In this document: positions 17,483 through 63,238 of the stretch, piece by piece
Position numbering within the stretch: position 1 is the stretch's first letter
Layout: the number at the start of each line of letters is the position of its first letter
IMG/VR virus record: IMGVR_UViG_3300013383_000248
Direction: 5' to 3' (one strand)
DNA length: 64,000 bases
From: a virus
Program-made: the position numbers and the translations under genes
Notes under the pieces: model-generated
What the model saw: the letters and a program-made list of their open reading frames with translations, nothing else
The model's database searches: none
What the model was told of the DNA's origin: nothing

Positions 17483-17519
17483 ATTATATAAATAGGAATT
17501 GAGAGAAAGGAGAAAACAT

Positions 17520-20500
17520 ATGGCTAATAATAGTGCCCAATATGATGTAAGACTTGCCTTTTCAGCAGATGTAGCTTAGGCAAGATAGCAATTAAAAAGT
17601 TTACAAGATGAATTAAGTAAACTTAGTACATTGAAAGATGTAAGTGTTGGAACTCGTTTAACGAAAGAGTTAGAATAGGCTTCTTTAAAAGCGGCTGATT
17701 TAAAAGTAATGCTTGAAAAGGCAACTGATATTAATACAGGCAAGTTAAATCTAACTTCTTTCTCTAATTAGCTAACTAAAAATGGAGAAAGCCTATCTAC
17801 TTATAGGAAAGCATTAAGTGCTCTAGGTCCTCAAGGTGAAGAAGCTTTTTTACAATTAACATAGAGTGTAATTACTGCTGATGCGGCTTTAACTACAGGT
17901 AGTAAGAAATTAAATGAATTTAAAAAGACTTTAGCCAATACAGTAAAATGGCAAATTTCTTCTAATATTACTCATGGTATTGTGGGAGAACTTTAGACTG
18001 CCTATTATTATGCTAAAGATTTAGATAGGGCTTTAACTGATATCAAAATTGTTACAGAAGATAGTGCTGGCTCTATGGCCGATTTTGCCTAGAAAGCTAA
18101 TAAAGCAGCTTAGTCTTTAAGTACTACTACTAAAGATTATGCTTAGGCTTCTTTAATTTACTATCAGTAGGGTTTAAGTGATAAAGAAGTAGAAGCAAGA
18201 ACGGCGGTTACTATTAAAATGGCAAATGCTGCTGGTGAAAGTGCATCTAAAGTGTCTGATTAGCTAACGGCTGTTTGGAATAACTTCTATGATGGTAGTA
18301 AATCTCTTGAGTATTATGCTGATGTAATGACAAAACTTGGCGCTTATACTGCCTCTAGCACTGATGAAATTTCAGAAGGTATTTAGAAATTCGCTTCTGT
18401 AGCTAATACAATTGGTCTTAGTTATGAATATGCGACATCTGCCTTAGCTACTTTAACAGCGAAAACACGTGAAAGTGCTAACGTAGTAGGTAATAGTCTT
18501 AAGACCCTTTTTGCACGTATTTAGGGTTTATCTCTTGGAGAAACTCTAGAAGATGGTACTGATTTAAATAAATATTCTACAGCTTTGGCAAAAGCTGGTA
18601 TTGATATTAAAGATTAGAATGGCGAGTTAAGAGATATGAATTCTATCCTTGATGAAATGATGAACAAATGGGATGGAATGAGCCGTGCCCAGTAGGTAGC
18701 ATTAGCTCAAACTGTAGCGGGTGTGCGTCAATATACTTAGCTTATTAATCTTATGGAAAATAAGGATTATTTTAAAGAGTTAGTTGGAGTAGCGGAAAAT
18801 TCTGAAGGAACGTTATAGATATAGGCAGATATATTTGCTGATAGTTGGGAAGGTGCTCGAAAAAGAGTTCAGGCTGCTGCTGAAGGCATTTATGATAGCT
18901 TAATTGATGAAGAGTTTTTTAAAGATGTTGATAATGTTGTTACTGTAGTATTAAATGGTATTAATGCTACCATTAAAGGATTAGGTGGAGTTAAAGGAGT
19001 AGTATCTAATATTAGCGCTTTAATTTTAAATATATATAAAAAAGATATTACTAGCGGATTAAATAATTTTGGAACAATGTTAAAAAATCTAACTCCATAG
19101 GGTTAGGCTTCTATAGAAGCTCGTAGACAAGAAGCTTTAGAGCAATAGAAAAAATTATATACTGGAGGCATTACTCCTAGTGAATTAAATTCTTGGGAAA
19201 CTGCAAGTTATCAAGATGATGCTAGATATGAAAAATATACTAAATTAGCGGAAGTTGAATAGTAGATTTTAAATATTTCTAAAGATTTAACAGAAGAAGA
19301 AAAAAAATAGGCTGGATTGTATTTAGATATATTGAATGCTGCTTCTGATAGAAAAGTTCTTACTAGCTAGCAAGTTGATCAAGCTAAAGAGCAATATCAA
19401 ACTATAGCCTCTTCATTAATTCATTCTTTGCGTTTAGCAGGAGCTGGAGATAGAGATGTTACAGAAGTTATTAGAAAAAATAATAATTATTTAAATGCAG
19501 CGAGTATAGCTTATTCATCTAATACTATCAGTAAAGTTGATGAAAAATCTCCTTTCGATACAGTATTACAATCTTCAAAAATAAAAGATATTGAAAATCT
19601 ACAAAAAATGATTAATGATCTATAGAATTTTAATGATTTTGATTTTGCAAGATTTAATGAAGATGCTTTTATAGGAATAAAAACATCTTTAGATGAATTA
19701 ATAACTAAATTAAAAAATGGTACAGCAACAGCTAAGGAATTTAATAAAGTCTTAGAAGATACTGGTAAATTTACTATGACAGCTGCTTTTGGATAGAGAG
19801 AACAAATAGATCCAAAAACTGGTAATATTACCTAGTCAGCCATTCCAGGGGCTAGACAAGAAGTCCAAGAACAAATGGAAATAGCTACAGTATATACAGA
19901 AGCTACTGGTCCTGCTTAGCAATTAGCTTAGGCTACATAGGGTCTTAATGTAGCTATGGAAAGATAGATTAAAACTAGCAATGAAGTTAAAGCCAGTGAA
20001 GAAGGAACTACTGAAGCAGTAAAAAAATTAGGAAATAGTACTGTTGAAGCTAGCGATAAAATAGTAGCTTTTAGTACTTCAGCTATGAATATAGCTGGAA
20101 TTTTTAACTCGCTTTAGGGAGTTGTTAACATTTGGTCTAATGATAATTTATCAGGATGGGAAAAAATTTTAGGGACATTAACTAGCCTAGGGATTCTTTT
20201 ACCTAATTTAGTAAGTTTAGGTAAAGCTATGACTATAATAACTCAAAAAATTACAGTTGCTAAAACTCAAGAAGCTGCTGCTCATACTCTTAATGGAAAT
20301 GCGATACAAGCTGAAGGGGAATAGGCTAAATTAGCTAATAAAAATTTTTCTATATTAGGTAAATCAATGAGTGGTATTAGTGCTGCGGCGGGTTGGATTA
20401 GCATTGCTTTAACTGCTTTAACACTTATTATTTCAGCTGTATCAGCTGCGATTGAAGAAGCTAAAGAAAAACGAGCTGAATTTGCATAGACTACTAAAGA

Positions 20501-23500
20501 AACTTATGAATAGACTAAATAGGAAATAGAAGAAAATGAAAAACTTGTTACTTCTTATCAAGAATTATTAGAAACTTATAAAAAAACTGGCGAAGGAAAA
20601 ACAGATTTAGTAAATACTTCAATAGAATTAATTGATGTATTTGATATAGAAAATGGTAGTTTATTATTATTATAGGGAAATTATGAAGAATTAACCAAAC
20701 GTATTTTGGAAGCTAAATAGGCTAAAGATACATTAGCTATTGGTGAGGCTAAAGCAGCTTATTTTGCAGCAAATGATACAGTTAAGGATGAGTTAGGTAG
20801 TACTTTTGGTTCTTATTGGGATATTGCTAGTGAAAATGCTGGAGATAATCAAGGATCTCGTTTATAGATTGCTCATATAGCTGGTTCAGATTATGATATT
20901 ATGTAGCAATATTTAAATTCTGTAGAAGGCTCTTCTAATTGGACTGTTAAAAATTTCCAAGGGAATGGAGCTTTTGATATTGCTAATGTAATAGATTTTT
21001 ATGATAATGCTAATACAAATATGTAGTAGTTTAGCGAGTGGGCTTAGAAAGAAACATCTAATGGAGGATTAGGTTGGTCTGAAGAATAGGTTAATGAATA
21101 TCTAGAAGAAAGTCGTACTAGCTTAGCTTCTATGAAAACTTTGGTTGATGGATGGAAAGATATTCAAAATGATACTAATTTAGCTATTTTAAATGCTTCA
21201 ATGAATGAATATGATGAAACTAAAGTTAAAGATTTGCCTTCTTATTTAAAATAGAGAGAAGTATTCACTAATCAGAAAGACGATTTAGAAGTTGGATATA
21301 CTTCTAACCCTGATGAAATTATTACTAGCTTTTTAGGAACAAATTCTAAAACTTCTGATTATGAAACTCTTCTTAATGGATTACAATCTTGGTATGATTA
21401 GTATTCTTCATTTTTACCGAATTTTGAAGAAATTATAAATAGTGGATTAACTGACGAAGAATTAAAAGTATTAGTCAATATTGATCCTAGAATAACCGGT
21501 GGTTCTTTAGAAGATTTACAAAATTAGATATAGAAATATTTAAAAACTCATCCGGTAGATATATCTGCCGATATTAAAGCAGGTAAAAAGGCTTTAAAAG
21601 AAGATATGTCTGGAAAAAATGATTGGAAAGATTTTTGGGAAGCTACCAGTAATATCACTTGGGGGAAAAATGGTATTGTTAGTTAGGCTGATTTTTAGGG
21701 AATGCAATATGGTCAATAGCAAAAATACCTTAATGAATTATATTCTCAAAATGCCTAGACTTTTTCTCCTGAAGAAAGAATAGCTAGAGCTACTGAAGAA
21801 AATGCTGAGTTAGAATAGCAAATAAATAATTTAAAAGGTTTATCAGATGAATAGGTAACCGAATTACAAAGAGGCAATTTAACAGAGAAACAAAATTAGG
21901 CTTATGATGATTTTTCTAATTATGAAACTTAGATAAATAATTTATTAGAAGCTTATAAAAATTCTGATAATTATGGAAAATATAACGATAGCTCTTGGTA
22001 TGAAGATATGCTTTTCTCTAACACAGCTTTTAATAATCCAGGGATGTATGATAATTGGATTAATACCTTGATTGCTAGAATAGGAGGTACTCCTGAAAAT
22101 TTCATAAAACCTGAAGTAACTACAGAGAATAGTTTAATTGAAGGACGAGATACCAAAAGAAATTTAGAGAATTAGAGACAAGGGTTTTAGGAAGATAATA
22201 TTACATAGTTAGAAAAAGAGCAAGCAGAAAATACTAGAGAATTATAGAATGCTTTAATAGATTATAATACTGAAATATCAAGAACAATACAGAATTTAGC
22301 CAATACTGATTTAAAAATTGGAGATATTATTTAGCCTGAATAGGTTGAAGCTTTAAAAGCTATTGGCATAAATTTAGATGATTATTTCATTCCAATGGAA
22401 GATGGTACTTATAAATTAATTACTGCTGCTGAAGAATTTAATAGAATCGTTGGTAAGGCTAGCATCTAGAATGCTTATAATGGTGCTGATATCATTATTC
22501 AAAATTTATAGGATAGTGGGCATTTTTTAAAAACTAATGGTTTATCAGATAAAGAAATTCGAGAACAAGCAAGAGTTTAGGCAGAAGATATTATTGATAA
22601 TTAGGGACAGACTAACTGGAGTGAAGAACGTAAATAGGCTTATTTAGATGCAGCTAAAGTAGATTCTACTTAGTTTGATAGTATAGATGAGGCAATGGTT
22701 GAAGCAGCTTAGCGGCTTAAAAAAGAAATTGAAAATGGAGATTATATCATTGATGTTACCATTAAAAATGCTAATTCTATGTCTGAATTAGAAAATTTAG
22801 CTAAAGAGGCTGGATGGAATAAAACTGATAAAGAATATACTGATGCTATTTTAAATTATCAAGCTGAAAATGGTAATAGCTTAGGCCGTGATGAAGCTAT
22901 AGCTGTTCAACGAGATTCTTAGAATAAATAGGCTGCTGATGAAGCTTTAGCAGAAGCTTAGAAATAGGAAAATAAAGCTAGAGAAGCTGTATATAATGCT
23001 ACAGGAAATGATTCTCGTGGAATACCAAATCGAGTATTAGCAGAAGAAGAATTAGAAAAGGCAATAAATAAAAGAGTTGAAGCTGAAACAAAAGTTAAAG
23101 AGGCTGATGATAAATTAGCTAATTCAACAGAAACTTTGAGTAAAAAAATGAAAAAAGTTGATTTTACAGAAACTGTTAAAAATTTAAAGGAATATGCAGA
23201 TAAATTAAAATCAGCGGGAAAAGGTACTGAAGAATATGAATAGTCTCTTAACGGTATGGCGGAAGAACTTTAGAATGCTTTTGGCGGAAATTTTGACGCA
23301 GAAATAGTTAAAAAACATCAAAATTTGATTAATAAATTAATAAATGGTACAGCTTAGGCTAGACGAGATGCAGCTGCTCAACTTTCTATAATAGGTCAAG
23401 ACAGTAAATTTAAAACTAATATGGAATAGGCTTTTGAAGGAGCAGAAGAGGAAGTGCAAACTAAAGTAAATGAAATTACTTCTGCTTTTAGCACTATGAC

Positions 23501-26500
23501 CAATGGTTTAAGTTTTAATGTCGATGGTAGTATTACTATGGATAGCCAATAGGCTATTGCTTAGGTTGGTGCTTTAATTGGATAGATGGATAATCTTGAA
23601 GCCGCAGCAACATTAGGTGGTAGCTTCTTAAGAGCTTTGTTAGACAGTAATATCGAATTTGATGCTTCCTCTATGGAAAAATTGGAAAATATGCTAATAG
23701 TCTTTGCTAAAGTCCAAAATGGTGAAAATGTAGATGTTAGCGAAGTCAAAAATGCGTTTAAAGATTTAGGGGATATTGGATTATTTGCTTCCGGTAAAGC
23801 CATTGATGTTCCTCCTTATAATATGGCTAATAAAAGTGGTGGAGGAGGAAGTAAGTCTAAAAAATCTGCTGCTGATATTGGTAAAGAAATTCAAGATGAA
23901 AAATTAAAAACTTATGAAAAGAAACGTGAATTGTTAGAAGCTAAGCGTGATGGAGCTAATCCAGAAGATGCTGCTAAATATATCCAAGAAGAAATTGATT
24001 TACTTAAAGAAGAGCAAGATATTCTTGAAGATTAGATTAAATCTTGGAAAGAATTATTAAAAGTTAAAGTTCAAGAATTTAATAAAGAACATCCAGAGTT
24101 TGAAATTAAACTTACTGATGATGGCGAGATTGCTAATGCTTCTGAATTATGGGGTTAGGTTTGGGCTTAGTATCAAAAGAATCTTGAAGATGGCATGAGT
24201 GAAGAAGAACTTAATGAATGGTTCACTAAAATTAAAGACGCTCTTGATGGTCCTATGGGTATCCAATAGAACATTGATGAAAACGTTGCTCTTATCGCTT
24301 AGAAAGAAAAAGAACAAGCCGAGCTTGAACTTGAATCAATTACAAAAGCTATTGATTGGAAAGTTAAGCAAATTGATTTCTAGATTAAACGTCTTAATTA
24401 TTATCAAGAAAAACTTCTTAAATAGGCCCACGGCAATAAACAAACTATTGAAGCAATGCTTGAAGGATTTGCTTATCAAGAGCAAGAAATGTTATAGCTT
24501 TTTGATAAAGGTGCAACTTTACGTGATGGTATTGACTAGTTAGTTGCCGCGAAAGCTAAGTATCCAGGCTATGAATAGATGTTTGATGAATAGATACTTG
24601 AATATCAAAGTGATTTAATTGATGTTAATGAGGCTATTCTAGATTTACGAAATGATATTGAAGATCTAGTTTAGAACGTTCTAGATTTGGCTCTTGATGA
24701 AATCGATAAATAGATAGAGCGTCTTGATACTTATACATCAATGCTTGACCATCTTAATAATATTATTGATTTGTCTGGCCGTTCAATGCTTGATATGGGC
24801 TTAAAAACCTAGATTGGTGCTACTAAAGTAGAAACAATGTTAGGCAAAATGAAGGCTTTAAAGGCCCAGATGGATGGCTTAACTAAAGCGACTAAAGAAG
24901 CAGAGGCGGCCCTTGCTGACCGTTAGGCTGATGGCGATACCTCTTCTGTTAAATTCTGGGAGAATCAAGTTGAGGTCTTAAAACAAGAGACTGAGAAGGC
25001 TTCTGAAGAATTCTTAGCGTCTTGGGAAGAAACTCTTGAAGCCGCTCAAGATTTATTTGAAATGCGTGTTGAAATGGCTGTTGCAGTATTAAGTAATGCC
25101 TTATCACCATTTGAAACTCTTGAAGATTTCTAGGATAAATATGAAAAGGCAAAAACCATCAATGAAGAGTACCTTGATGATGCTGAACGTCTATATGAGT
25201 TGAATAAGTTAAATCGTTAGCTAAATTTATAGCTGGCTGATGCTAATGACCTTTTAGCGAAACAAAAACTTAGAGACCTTCAGCAAGAGATTCACGATCT
25301 TCAGGCCGATGGTGTCCAGATGAGCCAATATGATCTTGAGTATTTACAAAAGAAATATGATTTACAACTTGCTGAAATTGCTCTTATGGAACAGCAAAAC
25401 TCAAAGACTTCAATGCGTTTAGTGCGTGATGCCGCAGGTAACTGGACTTACGCTTATGATGCTGATGAAGAAAAGATTGAAGATGCTACATAGAAATATG
25501 AAGATGCTGTCCATGAGTTAGATTAGCTAAGTAAAGATTATATTAATGATGTGAGTGAATAGTTGATTTAGAATTAGATTGATTTTAAAGAAGCTTTACA
25601 AGACCTTGATAAGAATTCTGCTGATTATTCTAATTAGCTATTATCATTATAGGAATATTATGTTGAAAGACAAAGATATTTACTTGATGAATTAAATAAA
25701 GGTGTTGTAAATAGCGGATAGACTTTTCATGATACCCTTTACGGCCAAATGACTGATCTGTATGATTACAATGATGCTTATATGTTATTCGTTAATAATT
25801 CTAATGCTACTATAACTGAACTACAAACCAATTATAAAGATTGGCAAAAAGTTGTAGAAACTGCAATGAGTGTTGCTGGTACATCTTGGGATAACTTTGG
25901 TACTGATATGGGCGGCACTCTTGATAGCCTTGAAGAACATATTCAAAAATTATGTGATGAAATTGAGGAACTCGTTAATGTATTAATGGGTTATATTTCT
26001 CAGTCTATTGGAATGGTCCTGGATTGGGAATAGAAATATTCTAAGCGTACTGATTAGGAACTTGCAGCCAATGAATCTTATATTGATGGTAATTTTATTG
26101 GCAGTAGCAGTGGTGGAGGAAGTAGCAATGTAGATATGCAAACTGATTTTACTGCTTTAATACAGCGTTGGATGGCTGGTGAACGTGATTTAACTAACTG
26201 GGATAATTCTAAAACTTATAATAGTTTGGAAGAAATAAAAGCCGATTTAGGTAAAAAATTAGATGCTTTTGAAAATGGTGAAGAAATACTTTTCTAGGGA
26301 AGTGGAGAATCATTTGACGAAGATGCTTATCAAACAGTTTATGATCATTTTTATAAAGGTTATGGAACTAACGGCGGAAGGTATGGATCTCTTTCTTATC
26401 CGAATACTTTTAGTAATAGTATTGTGGATAAAGCTGCTAATTACTTAGGAACAAAATATACCTATGGTGGTAAAGACGCGAGTACTGGTTTAGATTGTTC

Positions 26501-27209
26501 TGGATTAGTATATAAAGCATTGAATGATGCTGGAGTTAATGTTCCTATATTAACGGCTGAAGGATATAAACAAATGGCTAAATCTATTAGTTCTGCTAAT
26601 ATCAAACCTGGTGATTTAGTATTTTTTGGAGCTAATGGCGTGGCTGATCATGTAGGAATTTATATGGGCAATGGTTAGATGATAAATGCTACGGGTACTA
26701 AGACTTAGATTACTAGTATAGATTCTAAAAAAGCTGGATTAATTGGTTATGGTCGTATAGGTAATAGTTATTCTTCTAGCGATACTGCTGCTTTGATGGA
26801 TAGACTTGGTTTATCTAGAAGAGGTGGAGCTGCTTCTGGAGCTTATACTGGTGATTGGGGTCCTGGTTAGGGTATAGGTATTGATAATGGAAAAATTATT
26901 AAAGTCCATCCAAAAGAATTGATACTTAATAAATCTGATACTAGAAATATACTTCGTGCAGTTGATATTGTTCGTAATATGAATGATTGGGTAGATAAAC
27001 AAGTTTAGTAGTTATCTAATTTAAGTTCTTCAAAATTAGATAGCTTATATAATTCTGCTATCCCAAGATATGATACTCAACCAATTAAGCAAGAAGTCAC
27101 TATTCAAGCAGATTTCCCAGGAGTTACTGATCATTATGAAATTGAAGAAGCATTGTCTAATCTTAGCAATAATGCTGCTCAATATATAAGTGCGAATAAA
27201 TCTAAATGA
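17520..27209 (+). CDS. giant tail tape measure protein (~3229 aa) with C-terminal NlpC/P60-type peptidase domain
   Basis: A single frame stays open from ATG 17520 to TGA 27207-27209. It includes tracked ORFs 19428, 23586, 25749 and 26424 and ~150 in-frame TAGs; I found no TAA/TGA. It is highly alpha-helical/coiled-coil with a TMP-like core (ANAAGESASKVSDQLTAVWNNF). The C-terminus carries GLDCSGLVYKALNDAG ... VADHVGIYMGNG (NlpC/P60 Cys-His). Confidence 0.65.
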
Positions 27210-50992: not shown

Positions 50993-52443
50993 CTTCAGCT
51001 TCTCCTTGGGAACGGTTATTTCTTAATACTAAATCACCATTAGATTGAATTCCATCAATGTGATAAAGTTGATGTCCGGCTGTTGATGCATACTTCTTAA
51101 CAATAAAATCATCTCCAGAACGGATGCCTTGGACTACAATCATATTACCGCGATTAAACCAAGATTTTTCAATAATTTTTTTAGTTCCATCAGGTTGTTT
51201 TTGAGAAATTTGTTTGTCAAACAATGTAAAATATTCTTTTCTGAACTTTACATTTACTACTCCTGTTGGAGTAAGAATAGTTACAATACTCTTATTCTTA
51301 TTTTTAGCGATACAAGTGCCGCACAACTTAGAAAGATAATAAATATTTATTGTTTTTCCAGCCTTAATAAAGCTTCTTTCTACGACTGGGTCTTCTGGAA
51401 GTTTATAGAAATCAACAAATCCATATTTACCTTGATTAACTTTTGCTAATTCATGTTCGTGGTAATAGAAACATAATACTTCCATTTCCCACGCAGAATA
51501 ATTTACTTTAGGACAATATTTATCCCAATCCATTTTAAATACAATTTCATTTAATTTATTTAAAATTTCTTCTTTATTATCAGCAATTTGTTTACGATAA
51601 ACATCCATCCATCCTTGGTAAACCTTATCATTCCAATCCTTAATATTTAAAAAGAAATTAGAATTATTGCTTTGGATTAAGTCATCTTTATCAATCTTTT
51701 GTAAAAATCCAATAGCTCTTTCATCTAGTTTATAATTAACTTTATCATATTTACAAATTTGTTTTAAATAACGAGTAAATTCATAAATATGTAAAGCCTG
51801 TTGTCTTTCATCTGTATCTGCTGGAAGAAGATTTAATTTCATTAAAGTAGCTAAATTTTGAAGATTAAGATTTTTCTTTTTATCACAAGTTTCCCAAATA
51901 TACCAAGCCATACAAAGTTTTCTATCCATCATATGGTCAAAAGCCCCACCCTTGATAAGAGAAATCATAGCTTGTTTATTAGGATTAACTTTATTTAAGA
52001 AATCTCTAGGAGAGATATAAGGTCTGTTATCAATAATTGTGCGAACTACATCATCACCAACATTTAGCATACCTTTTAAGCCGAACAGAATTTGATTATT
52101 TTCAACATCAGGGATAAAACTAAATTCTGATTTATTAATATCAGCAAGACTTACTTTAATACCAGCCTTACGAATATCACCAATGGCCTTAGCAATTTTT
52201 CCATAGTCAGTAGAATTAGTTTTTCTTACCTTAGATTTTTTATCAGGTAAATCTTCAAAAGTAACTCCGTTAGCTAAATCATCAGCTTCTGGATCATAAA
52301 TATCTACTATTTCTTCTTCACTATTATCTTCTAAAGAACCACTATTGACAATTAAACAAGCACAATTCCAGTAGATAGGATTGTAATGAATAACAAAATA
52401 AATCATTTGAATAGCTACAAATGAATAAGGGAGTGAGTGATTA
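50982..52443 (-). CDS. dnaE: DNA polymerase III alpha subunit (DnaE), exon 2 (C-terminal ~486 aa)
   Basis: Begins ...NHSLPYSFVAIQMIYFVIHYNPIYW, aligning with E. coli DnaE ...[24 protein letters not shown]. No ATG or RBS of its own. TAA at 50982-50984. Confidence 0.85.
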
Positions 52444-53626
52444 CGTATACTCTGACTATTTCTTACGGACTTTGTAGTGAAAGTGGTAAATTTTCTCGTC
52501 CGCACACCATTTCCAACAACGTGTCAATAGTTGTTGTACTCCAAGTCTAACCTTGGATAGTCGATACAATAGATTAAAAATAAAGTTATTTTTTCCTTAA
52601 AGGATAATTTAAATTATCTTTTTTATGAGAGCGGCCAGTATTTATATTGGTTACTGTAGATCTTGATTTATTATATTTTTTAGCAATTTCATTTTGAGTT
52701 AAATTAGTATTTAATAAATCATTAATAATTTTATTAACCCAAATTTCATTAGCTTTTTTGTTACATCCTTTTATATATAAAGGATAAGTTTCATTTTTAT
52801 CAAAAAAATATCTACCACTATTAATACCAGAAATAAAACCAATACTTTTAATATTAAAATCTTTTGCTATTGTTTTATAAATTTCTCCAGACTTTATTCT
52901 ATCTTTAATTTGTTTTATTTCTTCTTTAGAGAAATGGCTTCTATTTATTTCTTTTTTTAAAGGATAATCAAATAAAGGATTTTTAAAATTTAACCCGCTA
53001 TTAATATTTATAAGATATGAATACTTTAAACGTGGAGAATATTTTTTTAAAATTTCATTAAAATCTTTATTGGCTATTAATAAATTCTGTATATTAATAA
53101 TTTCATTTCCAGTAAATAGTTTTGAAGATTGTAATTTTTCTTTATAAGTTTTTTCCTTCGGAGAAAATCCTTGTCCTCCTTGAGAAACATTATATCCATT
53201 TAAAGAAATTAAACTTTGATATTGTTCTATATAATATTTTTCTTTATCATCTATATAATTTTGGTCTTTACTATCATCAATTTCTTCTAATATAATAAAA
53301 TCAAAATTATTTAATCCATATTTTCTAATAGCATTATGGAATGGTATATTATAATCATTTGATTTAGGATTAAAAGAACAACTTTTATGTCCATTTTTTC
53401 TTTTTTGGATATTATTTGTTTGACCAATATAAATCTTCCCATTTATTTTATTTTCGTATTTATATATATATTTCATTTTTGCACCTCCTTATAATCTATT
53501 TCTACTTTTAATCTATCACGAGATTTTACCCTCGTTAGCAATTAATTTTATAATACTACCAATATTATAATGTAAATTAATTACCCCTATGACGAATAGG
53601 TTAAGTGTGTAAGCCCCAATCTCTCA
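52444..53626 (-). mobile_element. group I intron (~1183 nt) in dnaE carrying a GIY-YIG homing endonuclease gene
   Basis: Exon 1 ends ...AGCCU (53627) and pairs with intron GGGCU (P1, U.G at the splice site). The intron ends in a G at 52444. Splicing gives GYAFS-L-NHSLPYSF, collinear with E. coli [14 protein letters not shown]. Intron flanks are GC-rich and structured; the homing endonuclease gene has its own AAGGAGG RBS. Confidence 0.7.
52586..53476 (-). CDS. GIY-YIG homing endonuclease (296 aa), intron-encoded
   Basis: Tracked ORF: MKYIYKYENKINGKIYIGQTNNIQKRKNGHKS.... C-terminal NUMOD/HTH-like repeats. No TAG codons. Confidence 0.85.
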   Translation of the reverse strand: MKYIYKYENKINGKIYIGQTNNIQKRKNGHKSCSFNPKSNDYNIPFHNAIRKYGLNNFDFIILEEIDDSKDQNYIDDKEKYYIEQYQSLISLNGYNVSQGGQGFSPKEKTYKEKLQSSKLFTGNEIINIQNLLIANKDFNEILKKYSPRLKYSYLININSGLNFKNPLFDYPLKKEINRSHFSKEEIKQIKDRIKSGEIYKTIAKDFNIKSIGFISGINSGRYFFDKNETYPLYIKGCNKKANEIWVNKIINDLLNTNLTQNEIAKKYNKSRSTVTNINTGRSHKKDNLNYPLRKK

Positions 53627-56169
53627 AGGCTAAAAGCATATCCTAACTGCGGTGCTACTGCTGTTTCCCAAAAATATTCTGCATCACTTTTATTATTAAA
53701 ACGACTAAATACCTGTTCCTTTAATTGAGGAATCTTAGCCATTTGTTTTTTAGCAACAACTTTACGTGCTGAGTTAGCTTCACCTAATGTAAAATGAGCT
53801 ATATCCATAAGGATTTCCATCATTTGTTCTTGTAAAGGGCAACAACCATAATATTTATCACAGTGTTTATGAAATTTATTAATAAGTTCTTGAGGCAAAT
53901 GATGTTGTTTCATTTCTTGATCAAAGGCTTGGATACCTTGGTGTTGAATTCGATAAAATCTATCTTGTTGTGATTCTTTACCTTTTTCAGACATAAGACG
54001 CATCATAGCATTAGCCGCAGTCATTTCCATAGGGTCTTGCGGTTTTAGTTTTTTGGCAATAGCTAATCCTACACCAGTAGAAAACTGGAAACAGTCTAAT
54101 ACATCGCCTGCTGCAAGATGGTCCCAAATATTTTGGTCTTTTGTATCTATTACTTCTGGATGAATATATTGATTATAAAATTCTCTTAAAGATAAATCAG
54201 GAATTTCTTTTGCCTTTAATAGTAATTCATAACAAGTAATAATCTTGTCAGAAGCTTCAGTCACAAGGAAATCATATTTAGTATCTCCAGCTGCTTCCGC
54301 CTGATGCAAATCCCAGCAAGTAATTAAATTACCACTAGGCGTTCTCATAAATGCTGCTGTATCATAAGGATCATCCCCATAAAGAATAACGCCAGAAGCG
54401 TGAGAAGAACGTTTATTAACAATACCGCCAATATAAATAATTATATCAAGAAGTCCTGGATATTCATTTACTTTATTAATAAATGTTTTAACAGGCTTTC
54501 TATCTTTGGCTTCATTACCATAAATAACATCGTCAATTTCCCATAAGAATCCACGTTCTTGCGGGATAAGAGAAGACATATACTGTGCTTCATCTACGTC
54601 AATACCATTTGGATATTCTTCTGACCTATAACCACGACAAGCAGTGAGAATAGCAGATTTAGTAGTTTCAGTGCCAAAGGTAGCAACCTGAATTAATCCT
54701 AATTCTCCACGTTCTTTGCGAATAGCTTCAAAAATTGCAGGACGTTTTGAAGGAGCTAAGTCAATATCAATATCAGGTAATTCAGCACGTTCTTTGTTTA
54801 AAAAACGCCAATAAGGGAGACCCCATCTTATAGGATCAAGCTGAGTGATACCTAATAAATAGTTAGATAAAAAACCAGTGGCCGAACCACGCCCTGGACC
54901 TACTATAGAGCCGCAATTCCAAAACAAATCAATATAATGTTTAAAAGTATTAAAGTAAGCAAAAAGGCAATCATCTAATTTTTCACCAATATCTTTTATA
55001 ATATCAGCTTCAATTTCAAGACGATTTAAATATATATCAAGTTTATCTTCAGAGATACTTTTATTATACATCTTTTCCAATAAAGACATATAACATTCAT
55101 TAACCCAATAACGTTCTTGAGGATTATCACTCATTAATAAACTACATAAAATAGGATATTGTTCTTCACGTTCACCATACCATCCAGCCAATGATTGAGG
55201 ATAATCTGTTACTTCTACTTTTGGAATTATTTGTTTTCTTTCAAGAGAGAAATCTTCAATTTTATTTTGAATTTCAAGAGTATTATTTAAAATTTCTTTA
55301 GCTATTTCTTCTGGCTGTTCTTCTATGTCTAAATATATAAAACAAGGTTCAATTAATTTAAAAACTTCATCATAAGTCATTAAATGAGCGAACTCATAGA
55401 ATTTATCAACTTCTCGTTCACCGTCTTTTGAATTAAGATAAGCTTTATGAATTGGTCTATCTTCTTTAGTTAGATAATGACTGTCTGTAGCAACTTCTAC
55501 TTTAATTCCATATTTACGGCCAATTTTATAAATCATATGATTTACAAGTTTTTGGTCTGCCGCTGTTGATGGTGCAATCTCTAAATAAAAATCTTCATCA
55601 AATAAATCTTGGCAAAAAGTAAGAAAAGTATCTATTTGTTTTAATGTTTGATATAATTCATATTTATTTTCTTGTTCTTGGTATTCTACTGCTTTTAATA
55701 AACAAGTTCCTAACTCTCCACCAATACAAGCAGTAGTAGCGATTAGATGTCCTTTATATTTTTCTACTATTGGCTTTAATTCACTCTTTAAAAGTGGAAC
55801 TCGTTCCATTTTTCTATCAACATATAAATTTTGCCAAGCAATTGAACTTAATTCTTTTAATGCTCGATAGCCTATAGCATCTTTAGCAATTAAAATAAAA
55901 TGATAATATTTTTGTCCTGTACTTCTATCATCAGTTAAATAAATTTCATTACCTAATGCTATTTTAAAATCTGGATATTTTTCTTTAATTTTTTTAGCAT
56001 ATTGATTTACTGTCATATGTGCAGAAAGACTTTCGTGGTCTGTAATAGCGATTCCCGAAAGTCCTAATTCAATAGCCTTATCAATTAAAGTTTCTGGTTT
56101 ATTTATGCAATCAAGTAAACGGAGGTTCGAATAATCAGTATGATTATGGCAACCAAAATAAGTACTCAA
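53627..56169 (-). CDS. dnaE: DNA polymerase III alpha subunit (DnaE), exon 1 (N-terminal ~847 aa; PHP, palm, fingers)
   Basis: TTG start 7 nt after GGAGG. N-terminal PHP motif HNHTDYS. The tracked ORF 53587..56169 runs 13 codons into the intron. Confidence 0.85.
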
Positions 56170-59350: not shown

Positions 59351-61091
59351 TTAAAAATAATATTTTACATTTTTAGTAACATGATAATCAGTAATAAAAA
59401 TTTCTGGATTAGTTTTTCCTAAAAATTCATTTATTTTACAAATACCAATAATATCAACAATTATACAGCCTGTTTCACTATGTAAATAATTATATTCTTC
59501 TTGATTAACATTAAATTTAATTAAATCTAAATCATTTGGTAATTTAATTTTTAATGTTCCAGTAGTTTCTTTAGGATAATAAATTACATTATTATTAGTA
59601 AGTTTTAAATTTTTAATAACTATATATGGTTCTTTAAAATTCTATCCCCACAAAGGTTCAAACTCTGGTATTTCTAATATAGTATTTATATCAATATTAT
59701 TACTATCAAAAATATAATCAGCTAAATAAACTGGCTAACCATCATAACCATATAATTTACTATTTGTATCTCTTATGAATTTTCTTATATTATTATCAGC
59801 AATTTTCGCACCAAATGCTCCTTGATGACCTTCTGCAAATTCAAAATATCCAGTAGAATTAAGATAAGCTTTAAAATCTTTTATAGGCTCAAAAAATTCA
59901 TACCCACGACCAGATCCTTCCCAGTATTTAATTCCATTTTCAATTACTTCATTAAGTATAAGAGTCGGCTTCTAAAATCTATTAGCAAATTCATTTGCTA
60001 TTAATCCAGTTAAATTTTTATTTACTTCATATTTTTTATCCAACTAAACAACTAGAATTTTATCATTTAATAAACCTTGTTCTTCAATTAACTTTTCTAT
60101 TATTTCAACATTGGCATCACGGATTTTAGTCTATCGTGTTTTTACATTACCACTAACGCGACATGCCTGTTCTACAATAGTTTCAGCTTGTCCTCTGCAT
60201 CCTCTTTTGGTTGATGGAATTAAATCATAGGCAAGAAAATCTAACATACTCTAAAATACTACTTGTCGTTCATCAGTTTCTCCAACACGAGTAACTGCAT
60301 TAATGAGTGGAGCAATATAGAAAGCGACACCCATAGGAGTTAAAGTTTCTTTTAATTTAAATTTATTTTTTTCCATCATACCTTTAATATAAGGATTTTG
60401 AGGATTCTTTAATCCTTGATTAATAAAATATCGAGTTTCATAAGGCCTACTATCCATCATATCGCCGATTAATCCAAGAGCTACTAAATCTAAATATTTA
60501 TTTGAATAATTAGTATTAAGAATTTCATCAATAGCATTACAAAATTTATAAACAATAGCGACGCCAGATAATGCTTTATTAGGATAGTTATCTAATTGAT
60601 TATTAATTACACAAGCATAAGGAGAAATTTCATCTGCTTCATGATGATCTAAAATTAATATATCAATACCCTTATTATAAAGTGCTTTATGTTCTTTATA
60701 CTAATTACTTCCTGCATCAGGAATTATTACTAATTTAGTATCTTCTGGAATAGTATCTAAAATAATACCGTGAGTTTTCTAGATATGAACTCTATAATAT
60801 ACATTATTAGATACATAATAAGGGAATAAATCATATAAATAATTAATCAGCAATGCTGAAGATGTATAACCATCGCAATCAGCATCTACCTAAATAAAAA
60901 TTTTATCATTTTGTTTAATATGTTTTAATAATAATTTAATTCCCTATTCTATATTATTTAATAATTTATTGGGATATACATCAGATTGTGTGGGATTAAG
61001 AAAATGCTAAATATTCTCAGTCTTAATCCCACGATTATTCATTATTGTTTCTAATGGAGTTTTTTGTGTATCATTAATTAATTTATAATTC
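59351..61091 (-). CDS. recJ: RecJ-like DHH-family ssDNA exonuclease (~580 aa)
   Basis: Hand translation through ~12 TAGs: VDADCDGYTSSALL (DHH motif I), IPDAGSN, LDHHE (the DHH motif itself), GVAIVYKFC, LGLIGDMMD. AAGGAG RBS; TAA at 59351-59353. Confidence 0.85.
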
Positions 61092-61104
61092 ATATACTTA
61101 CTCC

Positions 61105-61473
61105 TTATATAATAATTCTTTCTTTATATAATTTAAGAAATAAATCTGGCCCTTCATCAGTTGGACTATCCTTATAATTAGTAAGCATATTCTTATCAAA
61201 AATAAAAGATATGTTAAAATAATTTCCATACTTAGCCTTTATTTTTAATAAGTTATTTTTTAAATGATAAAATTCTTCATCACCTATTTTTTGGAATTGT
61301 CTATCAAAAGCAATAATAATATCTTTCGCACCGACTTGCTCTAATAATTTCATTTGCTGAGCCGATACGCTGCTGCCGCAACAAGCTACCGTTATATCAT
61401 TTTCAAAACCAAAATAACTTTGATATTGTAAGGTTGACTTTTCCATATAATCCATTATTTCTAATGGTACTGA
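61105..61473 (-). CDS. dnaG: DnaG-type primase, exon 2 / C-terminal TOPRIM part (~122 aa; 5' boundary uncertain, 61455-61482)
   Basis: ...LEIMDYMEKSTLQYQSYFGFENDITVACCGSSVSAQQMKLLEQVGAKDIIIAFD... is TOPRIM-like. The frame is open upstream of the tracked ATG, through TAG codons. Confidence 0.7.
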   Translation of the reverse strand, partial: SVPLEIMDYMEKSTLQYQSYFGFENDITVACCGSSVSAQQMKLLEQVGAKDIIIAFDRQFQKIGDEEFYHLKNNLLKIKAKYGNYFNISFIFDKNMLTNYKDSPTDEGPDLFLKLYKERIII

Positions 61474-62455
61474 CTATATCTTCCAACTACTAATTATAGT
61501 TGCCACTGTTTCGAGATATGTACCAATAATATCTCTACTCCCTTTAACAGGATAGTCGATACAGGTTATCTATTTTTCCACATCTATTTTGCTCCTACTG
61601 AATGATTATTTCTTAGAGGATAATTATATCCATCAAGCCTATAAGATTGAGTTTTTCCATTTATTATATCTGAAATAGTGGAAGAAGAACAATTGAACAT
61701 TTTTGCTAATTCTTTTAAATTTTTATCATTTTTTAAAATTTCTTCATGAATTTTTTTACATTCTTCAGGAGAAAATTTTAATCCTTTAGTGCCTTTAGCT
61801 TTATTAGAACGAATAGGATATTTAATTCCAGACTAAGGTCTTCGTGCTCCAATATTTATATTGTATATGTGAGTTAGTGAAAATCCAGTTTTTTCACTTA
61901 TTTCTTTAAAAGAATATTTTTCATTCTTTAAATACTCAATAACTTCTAATATTTTTTTATCTTCATACATTGGTTTAACAGGATTTTTTCCACCAGTTGA
62001 TTGATTATAACCATTAAAATATGTATCATAATATTTTATCCAATATTTTTCTCTATTGTCTAATTCTTCAAGTGGAACATTTTCTTCTAAAACTATTAAT
62101 TGATACTCTTCTTCTCCATATTTTCTTATCCCTCGACTTAAAGGATAATCATACTCTGCTTTATTCATATTAAATGGGTCATATTGAATATGCTATTTAT
62201 GTCTATTTTTTAAGTTATTAGTTTGACCTACATAAACAATTTTACCATTACTTTTTTTCTTATAAGCATAAATTACATTCATAAAATCAACTCCTTTTCT
62301 CACTATTATATGAAAAATGAAGTTAGATGTTTAAATAGATTTTCCCACGGAACCACCTTGAATTTAAAAAAATTTTTAGGCTCCTCCGTTAGCTTGTTAA
62401 AAATAACAAACCCCATTGGTAAATGGTAAAGTGGACTAGGGCGAAACTTTCTTTT
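61474..62455 (-). mobile_element. probable group I intron (~980 nt) in the primase gene carrying a GIY-YIG homing endonuclease gene (3' splice site uncertain)
   Basis: Exon 1 ends GAGGGU (62456) and pairs with downstream GCCCU (62442-62438) as P1 with U.G. The upstream reading frame decays after IIFEG (the TOPRIM EG). The ATAGTCAG motif near the 3' end is shared with the dnaE intron. The C-terminal piece has no RBS. Confidence 0.5.
61833..62282 (-). CDS. GIY-YIG homing endonuclease (~149 aa)
   Basis: MNVIYAYKKKSNGKIVYVGQTNNLKNRHK-Q-HIQYD..., where the RxxxH Gln is a TAG. AAAGGAG RBS. The tracked ORF 61833..62168 is its C-terminus. Confidence 0.75.
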
Positions 62456-63220
62456 ACCCTCAAATATTATTGCTTTTCCTATCCTATTTATATTTGCTTT
62501 ACTATTATTTAAATTATATAAATTCATACCAAGAGGATGAGAATAAAGAATCTTATTAATTTTTAATGGTCTATATTTGCCATACAATAGAGCTTCCTCT
62601 TTTCCTAACACTCTTCCTCTTAGTCCTATAAAATTTCCATCTATGTCAAAATGAGGAATTGTAATAGCATCGCCGCCAGGGTAATAACCAATTATTGCTT
62701 GGTCTATCGCCTCTTGGCTTATTCCTTCTTTTAGCCACGGAGTTAATTTTACACAATAATTAAATCTACTTAAAATTTTACTATCATAAGTTTTTAATTC
62801 AACTTTAGAATTTAAATTTTCTTCTATGTTATTCTTATCATAATTAGCTAAAAATTTCCAATCTTCTAAGCCTAAATCTTCAGCATCGTCTTCCACTGAA
62901 CCGGCAATACCAAAATAATTAGCTATCCAACGAACTGCATCATTTAGGTCATACTCTTTATTAGATTGGATATGAGCTACTTTAATTACTAATTCAAATA
63001 TATCAAATATATCATCACAGCCGGTGTAGCATTTAAATAATTGACTATTTGAATAGTAATAAAGTTTCTTACTTCCTGCTCCTGGTTCATTATGACAGAT
63101 AGTTTCAGAAAGGATACCGAATTCACTATATTCAGGATTACCGCCCCAAATATTTAGTAATTCAAAAATATTGTCTAAAGTTAAATTATTTTTTATCTCA
63201 GCTTTATCATAGTTAATCAT
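62456..63220 (-). CDS. dnaG: DnaG-type primase, exon 1 (zinc-binding and RNA-polymerase domains, ~255 aa)
   Basis: CHC2 zinc finger CHNEPGAGSKKLYYYSNSQLFKCYTGC. RNA-polymerase-domain motifs GYYPGGDAITIPHF, GLRGRVLG, KYRPLKINKILYSHPLGMNLYNL. Ends ...NRIGKAIIFEG, aligning with E. coli ...PNRLLVVEG. Confidence 0.75.
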
Positions 63221-63238
63221 TATTAACTTAATAAATTA

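Follow-up and report, generated by a model that had tools for sequence, protein, structure and literature searches.

Here we report the analysis of an interrupted DNA primase gene in a 64,000-nucleotide stretch of viral DNA from IMG/VR record IMGVR_UViG_3300013383_000248 (hereafter the window, meaning the whole 64-kb stretch). The insertion that interrupts the gene, at positions 62455..61444 on the minus strand, is with high probability a mobile group I intron that resembles the td intron of phage T4 (IA2-like) and carries a GIY-YIG homing endonuclease gene in the loop of its P6 helix. We infer that the primase gene is not split and that exact excision of the intron would restore a normal primase. 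We observed colinearity with intronless alleles, covarying helices, and introns at the same site in other phages, and these observations suggest that actual splicing, endonuclease activity and homing take place. The intron belongs to a well-known kind, homologous unannotated copies of it are already present in public phage genomes, and it leaves knowledge of introns or primases unchanged. Its practical consequence lies in annotation: the primase should be given as one spliced 367-aa product (join 63220..62456, 61443..61105) together with an intron-encoded endonuclease, rather than as two or three fragments, and the Enterococcus phages EF1 and EF5, like many phage contigs from metagenomes, need the same correction.

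Exact boundaries of the insertion in the primase gene

The interrupted gene comprises the following features.

62456..63220, minus strand: exon 1 of the primase gene (SPbeta YorJ-type), from the list of open reading frames (ORFs) and gap-free against the intronless alleles L001-L005
61444..62455, minus strand: predicted group I intron of 1012 nt, from excision colinear with intronless alleles, the match to covariance model R1, and covariation
61566..62282, minus strand: ORF of the GIY-YIG homing endonuclease, inside the P6 loop; 238 codons with TAG as sense
61105..61443, minus strand: exon 2 of the primase gene, starting EKSTLQYQSYFGF..., from alignment to intronless alleles and homologues

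The primase ORF starts at ATG 63220, upstream of which no obvious Shine-Dalgarno sequence is found. Exon 1 has no in-frame TAG and ends ...NRIGKAIIFEG, with the codons GAG GGT and the last base at 62456, exactly where an earlier sequence-only reading of the region had placed an interruption of about 1 kb with its 5' edge at 62455. Past GAG GGT, the primase frame runs through 49 meaningless codons and then meets TAA. The inserted sequence starts AAAAGAAAG... at 62455 and ends ...GGAUUAUAUG, with its terminal G at 61444, and the first codons of exon 2 encode EKS (GAA AAG TCA, from 61443).

For comparison with uninterrupted genes we used the DNA of five intronless alleles (L001-L005) from close phage relatives, which align to window positions 63225..62456 and 61443..61000. 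The intronless alleles read ...ATAATATTTGAAGGT|GAAAAATCTACT..., with ...ATAATATTTGAAGGTGAAAAATCTACTCTACAA... as the junction sequence of the L003 type, and the window reads ...ATAATATTTGAGGGT[1012 nt]GAAAAGTCAACC.... Excision of 62455..61444 yields a coding sequence (CDS) of 1104 nt (367 aa), the same length as in the intronless alleles, with 0 indels and 90.5-92.6% nucleotide identity; alignment with phage primases, a check proposed with the sequence-only reading, is thus free of indels once 61444 is taken as the end of the insertion. The exons contain no stop codon and no frameshift, and the spliced protein reads ...AIIFEG|EKSTLQY..., as do the intronless alleles. A protein search with the joined fragments returned at least 100 intact primase homologues, the top matches being 367 aa long and 93-95% identical (P0001-P0004 are the closest), and in each of the nine homologues that were retrieved and read, the junction is FEGEKS or FEAEKS without additional residues. 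The Pfam Toprim model gives a weak match that spans the junction in the spliced protein (E 0.003, 18.1 bits, cut-off 23.1).

These alignments revise the 3' boundary. It had been put at 61458, with a C-terminal exon that begins ...LEIMDYMEKS and carries the rest of the Toprim domain; the insertion ends instead at 61444, LEIMDYM corresponds to the P9 hairpin and the tail of the intron, and the exon starts with EKS. The likeness of EG-x-MD to the EGYMD of E. coli is a coincidence, as intact homologues read FEG-EKS with nothing between, which also disposes of the 5-8 residues that had been expected between EG and IMD. None of the 3' splice sites considered earlier (61474, 61480 and 61483) can be the end of the intron, because they lie within the P7 3' strand or immediately ahead of it, upstream of P9. 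One further 3' splice site, 61453 (EG|DYMEKS), was rejected, since intact homologues are 3 residues shorter and read FEG|EKS. The case is cautionary, in that an in-frame reading of intron RNA ("IMD") mimicked a catalytic motif and led to wrong splice-site proposals.

The sequence-only reading had offered two explanations, an intron or a gene split by a homing endonuclease, with the C-terminal fragment starting at the M of EG-x-MD. In the second, the primase would consist of two polypeptides, an N-terminal one with a 49-aa intron-encoded tail and a C-terminal one initiated at ATG 61455 (MDYMEKS...), which would reassemble the Toprim fold without splicing; the peptides to be expected are MDYMEK.../...FEGKRKFRPSPLYHLPMGF.... 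Genes fractured by homing endonucleases are known (PMC2677866), and ATG 61455 is in frame, 12 nt upstream of the true exon 2 start. This ATG, however, falls inside the covarying P9 hairpin, and MDYM has no counterpart in any intact homologue read. A break at this point would cut the Toprim fold right after the catalytic glutamate, and the complete covarying ribozyme core that is kept in the window, in the phage contig L067 and in EF1 would serve no purpose in a gene that was merely split. No Shine-Dalgarno sequence lies upstream of ATG 61455, which is weak evidence on its own: the primase's own start lacks an obvious one too, so a missing ribosome-binding site (RBS) is not decisive in this phage. 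Absence of any core combined with an independent RBS for the C-terminal fragment had been named as the outcome that would count against an intron; the core is present, and that fragment has no such site. We consider a split primase very improbable. Of the two explanations it is the intron that stands, on the strength of the excision, of P1, P10 and the terminal G, of the covarying core, and of same-site relatives.

Five silent substitutions set the window apart from the intronless alleles in the 12 nt on either side of the junction (62444-62468 and 61431-61443), namely GAA>GAG at position -4 and, downstream, AAA>AAG, TCT>TCA, ACT>ACC and CTA>TTA. The GAA>GAG change lengthens the P1 pairing. 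As a signature of co-conversion or target-site protection this pattern is suggestive, but statistically it does not stand out from a background divergence of ~8%, and it was rejected as such.

Structure of the predicted ribozyme

The elements of the intron RNA, in 5' to 3' order of their first strands, are as follows.

62438..62460, minus strand: P1 and internal guide sequence, from sequence and mapping; the same P1 occurs in L067 and EF1
62430..62434, minus strand: P3 5' strand, CCACU, which pairs with AGUGG at 61503-61507
62392..62426, minus strand: two conserved hairpins, A (62426-62413) and B (62411-62392), placed after the P3 5' strand and ahead of J3/4, which is unusual in a group I intron
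62346..62391, minus strand: J3/4 (UAA), then the P4-P5-P4' domain, ACGGAG ... UUCCGUG, 96.9% paired
62333..62340, minus strand: P6 5' strand, AUCUAUUU, which pairs with AAAUAGAU at 61568-61575
61472..61557, minus strand: 3' half of the catalytic core, from models and covariation
61557-61552 with 61477-61472, minus strand: P7, GACUAU with AUAGUC, invariant
61551-61540 and 61535-61513, minus strand: P7.1 and P7.2, both covarying
61507-61503 and 61502-61484, minus strand: P3 3' strand and P8, in the 3' half of the core
61444..61467, minus strand: GAAA-capped P9 hairpin, CCAUUA-GAAA-UAAUGG (61467-61452), and the tail AUUAUAUG up to G 61444

At the 5' junction, exon AGGGU (62460-62456) pairs with GCCCU (62442-62438), with U62456·G62442 at the splice site, in agreement with the P1-like stem with a U·G pair that had been noticed there from the sequence alone. 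UUUC (62446-62443), directly 5' of the P1 guide strand, pairs with GAAA at the start of exon 2 (61443-61440) to give a P10 of 4 bp. The boundaries are therefore in keeping with the rules for group I introns: a U precedes the 5' splice site and forms a pair with G in P1, the intron closes with a G, and a P10 can be drawn. In the 3' half, the R element GUAUCGACUAUCC (61563-61551) and the S element AAGAUAUAGUC (61482-61472) form P7, and the order of the core is P7-P7.1-P7.2-P3'-P8-P7'-P9. P6 closes a loop of ~0.8 kb that houses the endonuclease gene (the ~0.7-kb ORF plus its leader), and in L067 this helix reads AUCUGUUU/AAACAGAU, a compensatory change relative to the window.

The full structure was written from the window sequence and then counted on an 18-sequence MAFFT alignment of ORF-deleted introns, to which it was not fitted. 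In this alignment 92.8% of pair cells are paired, versus 37-42% when the partners are slid by 1-3 columns; changes on both sides are seen in 37 of the 57 pairs, and the observed values were reached in 0 of 500 shuffles. P3, both 5' hairpins, P7.2 and P9 are 99-100% paired. Double changes affect four of the five pairs of P3 (100% of cells paired; a partner-shuffle test was also done for this helix), 3/5 and 6/8 pairs of hairpins A and B (both 100% paired), 7/7 pairs of P7.2, and 6/6 pairs of P9 (100% paired), and one P4 pair is A-U in the window versus G-C in the other 17 sequences (columns 69/121). All ten helices form in the window sequence, and among relatives nine show 97-100% pairing. The value of only 48% for P8 reflects misalignment by MAFFT of a stem that varies in length. 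The inner P7.1 pair is paired in 78% across relatives, and the window has a G·A mismatch at one P7.1 position.

Relatives were gathered from viral contigs by an exact 14-nt R-element seed taken from the window, which returned at least 120 stretches of DNA, most of them sharing the whole 3' architecture. All helices other than the seed's own are independent of these 14 nt. RNAalifold, applied to a MAFFT alignment of 62 3' halves from outside the window, finds compensatory changes in 15 of 23 pairs. From 62 related 3' halves, with the window excluded, we built the covariance model R1. The search for a group I core proposed with the sequence-only reading succeeded with this family model, which matches the 64-kb window at two places only, 61436-61567 in the primase insertion (109.4 bits, E 3.5e-20) and 52411-52572 in an insertion in the dnaE gene (65.6 bits), whereas the general Rfam model gave no match. 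Every core position that is invariant in the family is present in the window, and an nhmmer search with the 5' part of the intron recovers the 5' halves of the same relatives, including those without an ORF.

The sequence-only reading had also pointed to an element, ATAGTCAG, near the 3' end of the primase insertion and shared with the 3' end of the dnaE insertion. It is indeed found at 61470-61477 and 52452-52459, on the minus strand in both insertions, and it consists of the P7 3' strand plus two bases, a stretch that is invariant in at least 100 related introns. As a bare 8-mer it occurs no more often than chance predicts (3 matches versus 1.8 expected, with 28 of 100 shuffles reaching 3); we therefore rejected it as a standalone motif, and it is meaningful only as part of P7.

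Several observations weigh against the assignment to group I. The seed used to collect the relatives came from the window, so identity in those 14 nt is by construction and carries no weight. Rfam model RF00028 finds no match in the window, either at its gathering score over the whole window or at E <= 10 over 61000-62800, where only chance snoRNA (small nucleolar RNA) matches appear. Even the best ORF-less relative, L053, scores 36 bits on this model, below the gathering score of 50. Finally, the order P3(5')-hairpin A-hairpin B-J3/4 departs from the canonical group I layout. The failure of RF00028 on the window is expected, because the ~0.8-kb P6 loop interrupts the model and the P3 arrangement is atypical; it is a limit of the model and not evidence against an intron, yet it is still a failed test. 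The same model is matched end to end by L053 (36 bits, E 8e-8), and a td-like intron in contig L027 reaches 85.3 bits on it.

A decayed intron that no longer splices, with the primase either a pseudogene or complemented by a host or helper primase, would account for the missing Rfam match in the window and for the G·A mismatch in P7.1, and splicing itself is a deduction. Decay is nevertheless hard to reconcile with invariant core positions that are all present, an R1 score of 109 bits, ten helices that form, exons free of stops and frameshifts in which the five substitutions nearest the junction are all silent, and an endonuclease ORF that is intact under the genome's own code. We judge it quite improbable.

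As a splicing-competent intron, the element may act as follows. A single pre-mRNA would be made from the primase gene; once its intron has folded, P1 would display the U·G pair that follows GAG GGU. There an external guanosine would attack, the terminal G 61444 would then dock in P7, and P10 (UUUC with GAAA) would align exon 2. Joining of the exons would produce ...UUUGAGGGU|GAAAAGUCA..., encoding an uninterrupted 367-aa YorJ-type primase. The endonuclease would be translated separately from its own RBS, with TAG read as sense as elsewhere in the genome, and its presumed role is homing, in which it would cleave primase alleles that lack the intron when phages co-infect a cell, and the intron would then be copied into these alleles.

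The endonuclease gene in the P6 loop

The GIY-YIG ORF that had been recognized inside the insertion was borne out by Pfam (PF01541, residues 2-93, E 1.6e-8, 35.1 bits, cut-off 22.6). It is preceded by the RBS AAAGGAG (62297-62291), starts at ATG 62282 and stops at TAA 61568-61566. Its C-terminal region (~172-217) matches several helix-turn-helix (HTH) families at E 1e-5 to 1e-3, mostly below their cut-offs, with HTH_3 and Sigma70_r4 marginally reaching theirs. The ORF contains in-frame TAG codons at 62195-62193, 61835-61833 and 61586-61584, and the standard code would break it into three pieces. Over 225 aa its product has 48% identity to the endonuclease encoded by the EF1 primase intron, and the alignment passes through TAG codons 30 and 150; only the phage's own code, which the endonuclease gene has adopted, therefore leaves the ORF intact. 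The observation that the frame upstream of the C-terminal primase piece is open only through TAGs was likewise correct, and TAG is a sense codon in this genome.

The non-coding leader of the endonuclease gene (62283-62345, minus strand) is nearly identical in the window and L067, while the rest of the ribozyme has diverged. It holds the best promoter-like match of the region, a sigma-70-like TAAACA-17-TATAAT at 62333..62305, just upstream of the RBS; as a class, sigma-70-like sites are not enriched (22 versus 16.8 ± 3.7 expected). From its sequence, the leader may serve the endonuclease gene as an internal promoter or as an element of translational control.

The same intron in other phages and a wider family

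Introns homologous to that of the window interrupt primase genes of other phages at the same site. In L067, a contig of another TAG-recoded phage, the intron lies at ...AIVFEG|EKSCLLY... and likewise encodes a homologous endonuclease. In the cultured Enterococcus phages EF1 (MF001358) and EF5 (MF001361) it lies at ...AIVFEG|EKSVMK... and contains a homologous GIY-YIG gene.

MF001358.1 138999-141996 (our locus L126): EF1 primase intron locus; the EF5 counterpart is in MF001361.1

The EF1 and EF5 records show three separate 'hypothetical protein' CDSs at the locus and no annotated intron. P1 is common to the window, L067 and EF1/EF5, and P3, P4, P6, P7.2, P8 and P9 are kept through compensatory changes. 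These loci also bear on whether the contig could be a chimera that joins the primase to an unrelated endonuclease cassette. Nothing specific suggests an artefact beyond the window's origin in an unknown assembly; both junctions are base-precise and in frame, and cultured phages and an independent contig have the same arrangement and junctions, which makes this explanation exceedingly improbable.

The insertion in dnaE, the gene for Pol III alpha, is a second intron of the same family, of ~1183 nt (52444-53626, minus strand), and is the second of the two places matched by R1. Its P1 has two consecutive U·G pairs, and its GIY-YIG ORF (53476..52586) has no TAG. Splicing at 53627|53626 and 52444|52443 would give GYAFSL|NHSLPYS, gap-free against Thermus DnaE (YGFNKSHAAAYS).

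Introns of this family follow a common 5' order, namely P1, P3 5' strand, hairpin A, GG, hairpin B, UAA (J3/4) and P4, as against the canonical P1-P2-P3-J3/4-P4. This order is seen in the window (62392-62434), in L053 (968-1199), in L027 (2951-3210), in L056 and L084, and at ~40 other loci, and the Rfam group I model is unable to place P3 in these introns. The most unusual feature of the window intron, the P3 5' strand ahead of two hairpins, thus belongs to the whole family and not to this locus. We put forward tentatively, as a possible but doubtful view, that both window introns are members of a large, mostly unannotated phage family (at least 100 contigs with the 14-nt seed) whose topology is missed by Rfam, which may be an undescribed structural variant of subgroup IA, and whose members lie after the Toprim E-G codons in primases and GyrB-like genes.

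Same-family introns were also observed in GyrB/topoisomerase-II-like genes, in L052 (1108 nt), in L088 (1057 nt) and probably in L017. Their insertion sites (...VTEG|DSASGN and ...IVEG|DSAGGN) lie directly after the Toprim E-G codons (GAGGGU) and are equivalent to the primase site.

Comparison with known systems

The window intron most resembles the td intron of T4 with its endonuclease I-TevI (group I, IA2). Both have a phage gene of DNA metabolism as host, and in both the P6 loop contains a GIY-YIG ORF preceded by an RBS of its own. The layout P7-P7.1-P7.2-P3'-P8-P7'-P9 matches that of the T4 td intron and of the td-like intron in L027. Near-consensus R and S elements (..CGACUAUCC.. and AAGAUAUAGUC) are further features in common with T4 td, as are P7.1 and P7.2, which separate P7 from the P3 3' strand, the P9 hairpin, and a tail that ends in ..AUG at the 3' splice site. 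In contrast to td, the window intron lacks a hairpin where P2 canonically stands, after P1 and ahead of P3, and two conserved hairpins follow the P3 5' strand; it is also without the P9.1/P9.2 extensions, its host gene is a primase, and its endonuclease has sense TAGs. With respect to subgroup IA2, P7.1/P7.2 between P7 and the P3 3' strand are present, whereas the canonical order P1-P2-P3-J3/4-P4 is found neither in the window nor in the family. Because of this noncanonical 5' order we use the term IA2-like and refrain from placing the intron in IA2 itself.

The introns of EF1 and EF5 resemble that of the window in insertion site (..VFEG|EKS..), in P1 (AGGGU/GCCCU), in architecture, and in the endonuclease at the 48% identity given above; their host gene is also a YorJ-type primase, ~35% identical to that of the window. 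EF1 differs in using the standard code, with no TAG in the endonuclease, and its 3' half has 74% nucleotide identity to that of the window. Literature searches, of incomplete coverage, turned up no description of a phage primase gene with a group I intron, which is no proof of absence.

In recoded 'Agate' phages, Borges et al. (bioRxiv 10.1101/2021.08.26.457843) described an early gene with a group I intron whose endonuclease contains the reassigned stop codon, and they proposed that production of this enzyme is delayed by the recoding. The window shares with these phages an intron-encoded homing endonuclease with a reassigned stop codon in frame, a replication-type gene as host, and a recoded gut phage as carrier; the Agate phages reassign TGA, and the window phage reassigns TAG. 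The window intron adds to the cases in which mobile group I introns spread through replication genes of gut phages with recoded stop codons. For the window, we did not adopt a role of TAG codons as an endonuclease timer; it is not supported, since 11 TAGs occur in the RecJ-like gene next to the primase and none in the endonuclease gene of the dnaE intron.

Genetic code and gene context of the window

The window is AT-rich (G+C 30%) and phage-like. Long ORFs sum to 7,092 aa under the standard code and to 19,695 aa with TAG as sense, and TAG is a sense codon throughout the window. In-frame TAGs are abundant in the large plus-strand genes, with a maximum of 116 in one of them (17484-27209, plus strand), and their use is not restricted to late or structural genes, as shown by the RecJ-like replication gene with its 11 in-frame TAGs (59351-61123, minus strand), which adjoins the primase. 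A tRNA scan of the 64-kb window detected no tRNA gene, hence no suppressor tRNA. The minus strand between 50 and 64 kb is a replication module of the SPbeta type, with genes for a DnaB-like helicase, the YorJ-like primase, the RecJ-like exonuclease, a PIF1-type helicase and DnaE, along with a lysozyme-like gene. L001 and L002, the closest relatives in which the primase is intronless, have instead an intron of the same family with a GIY-YIG ORF (1126-2140) in the gene for the DnaB-like helicase, so that phages that are nearly identical differ in intron content.

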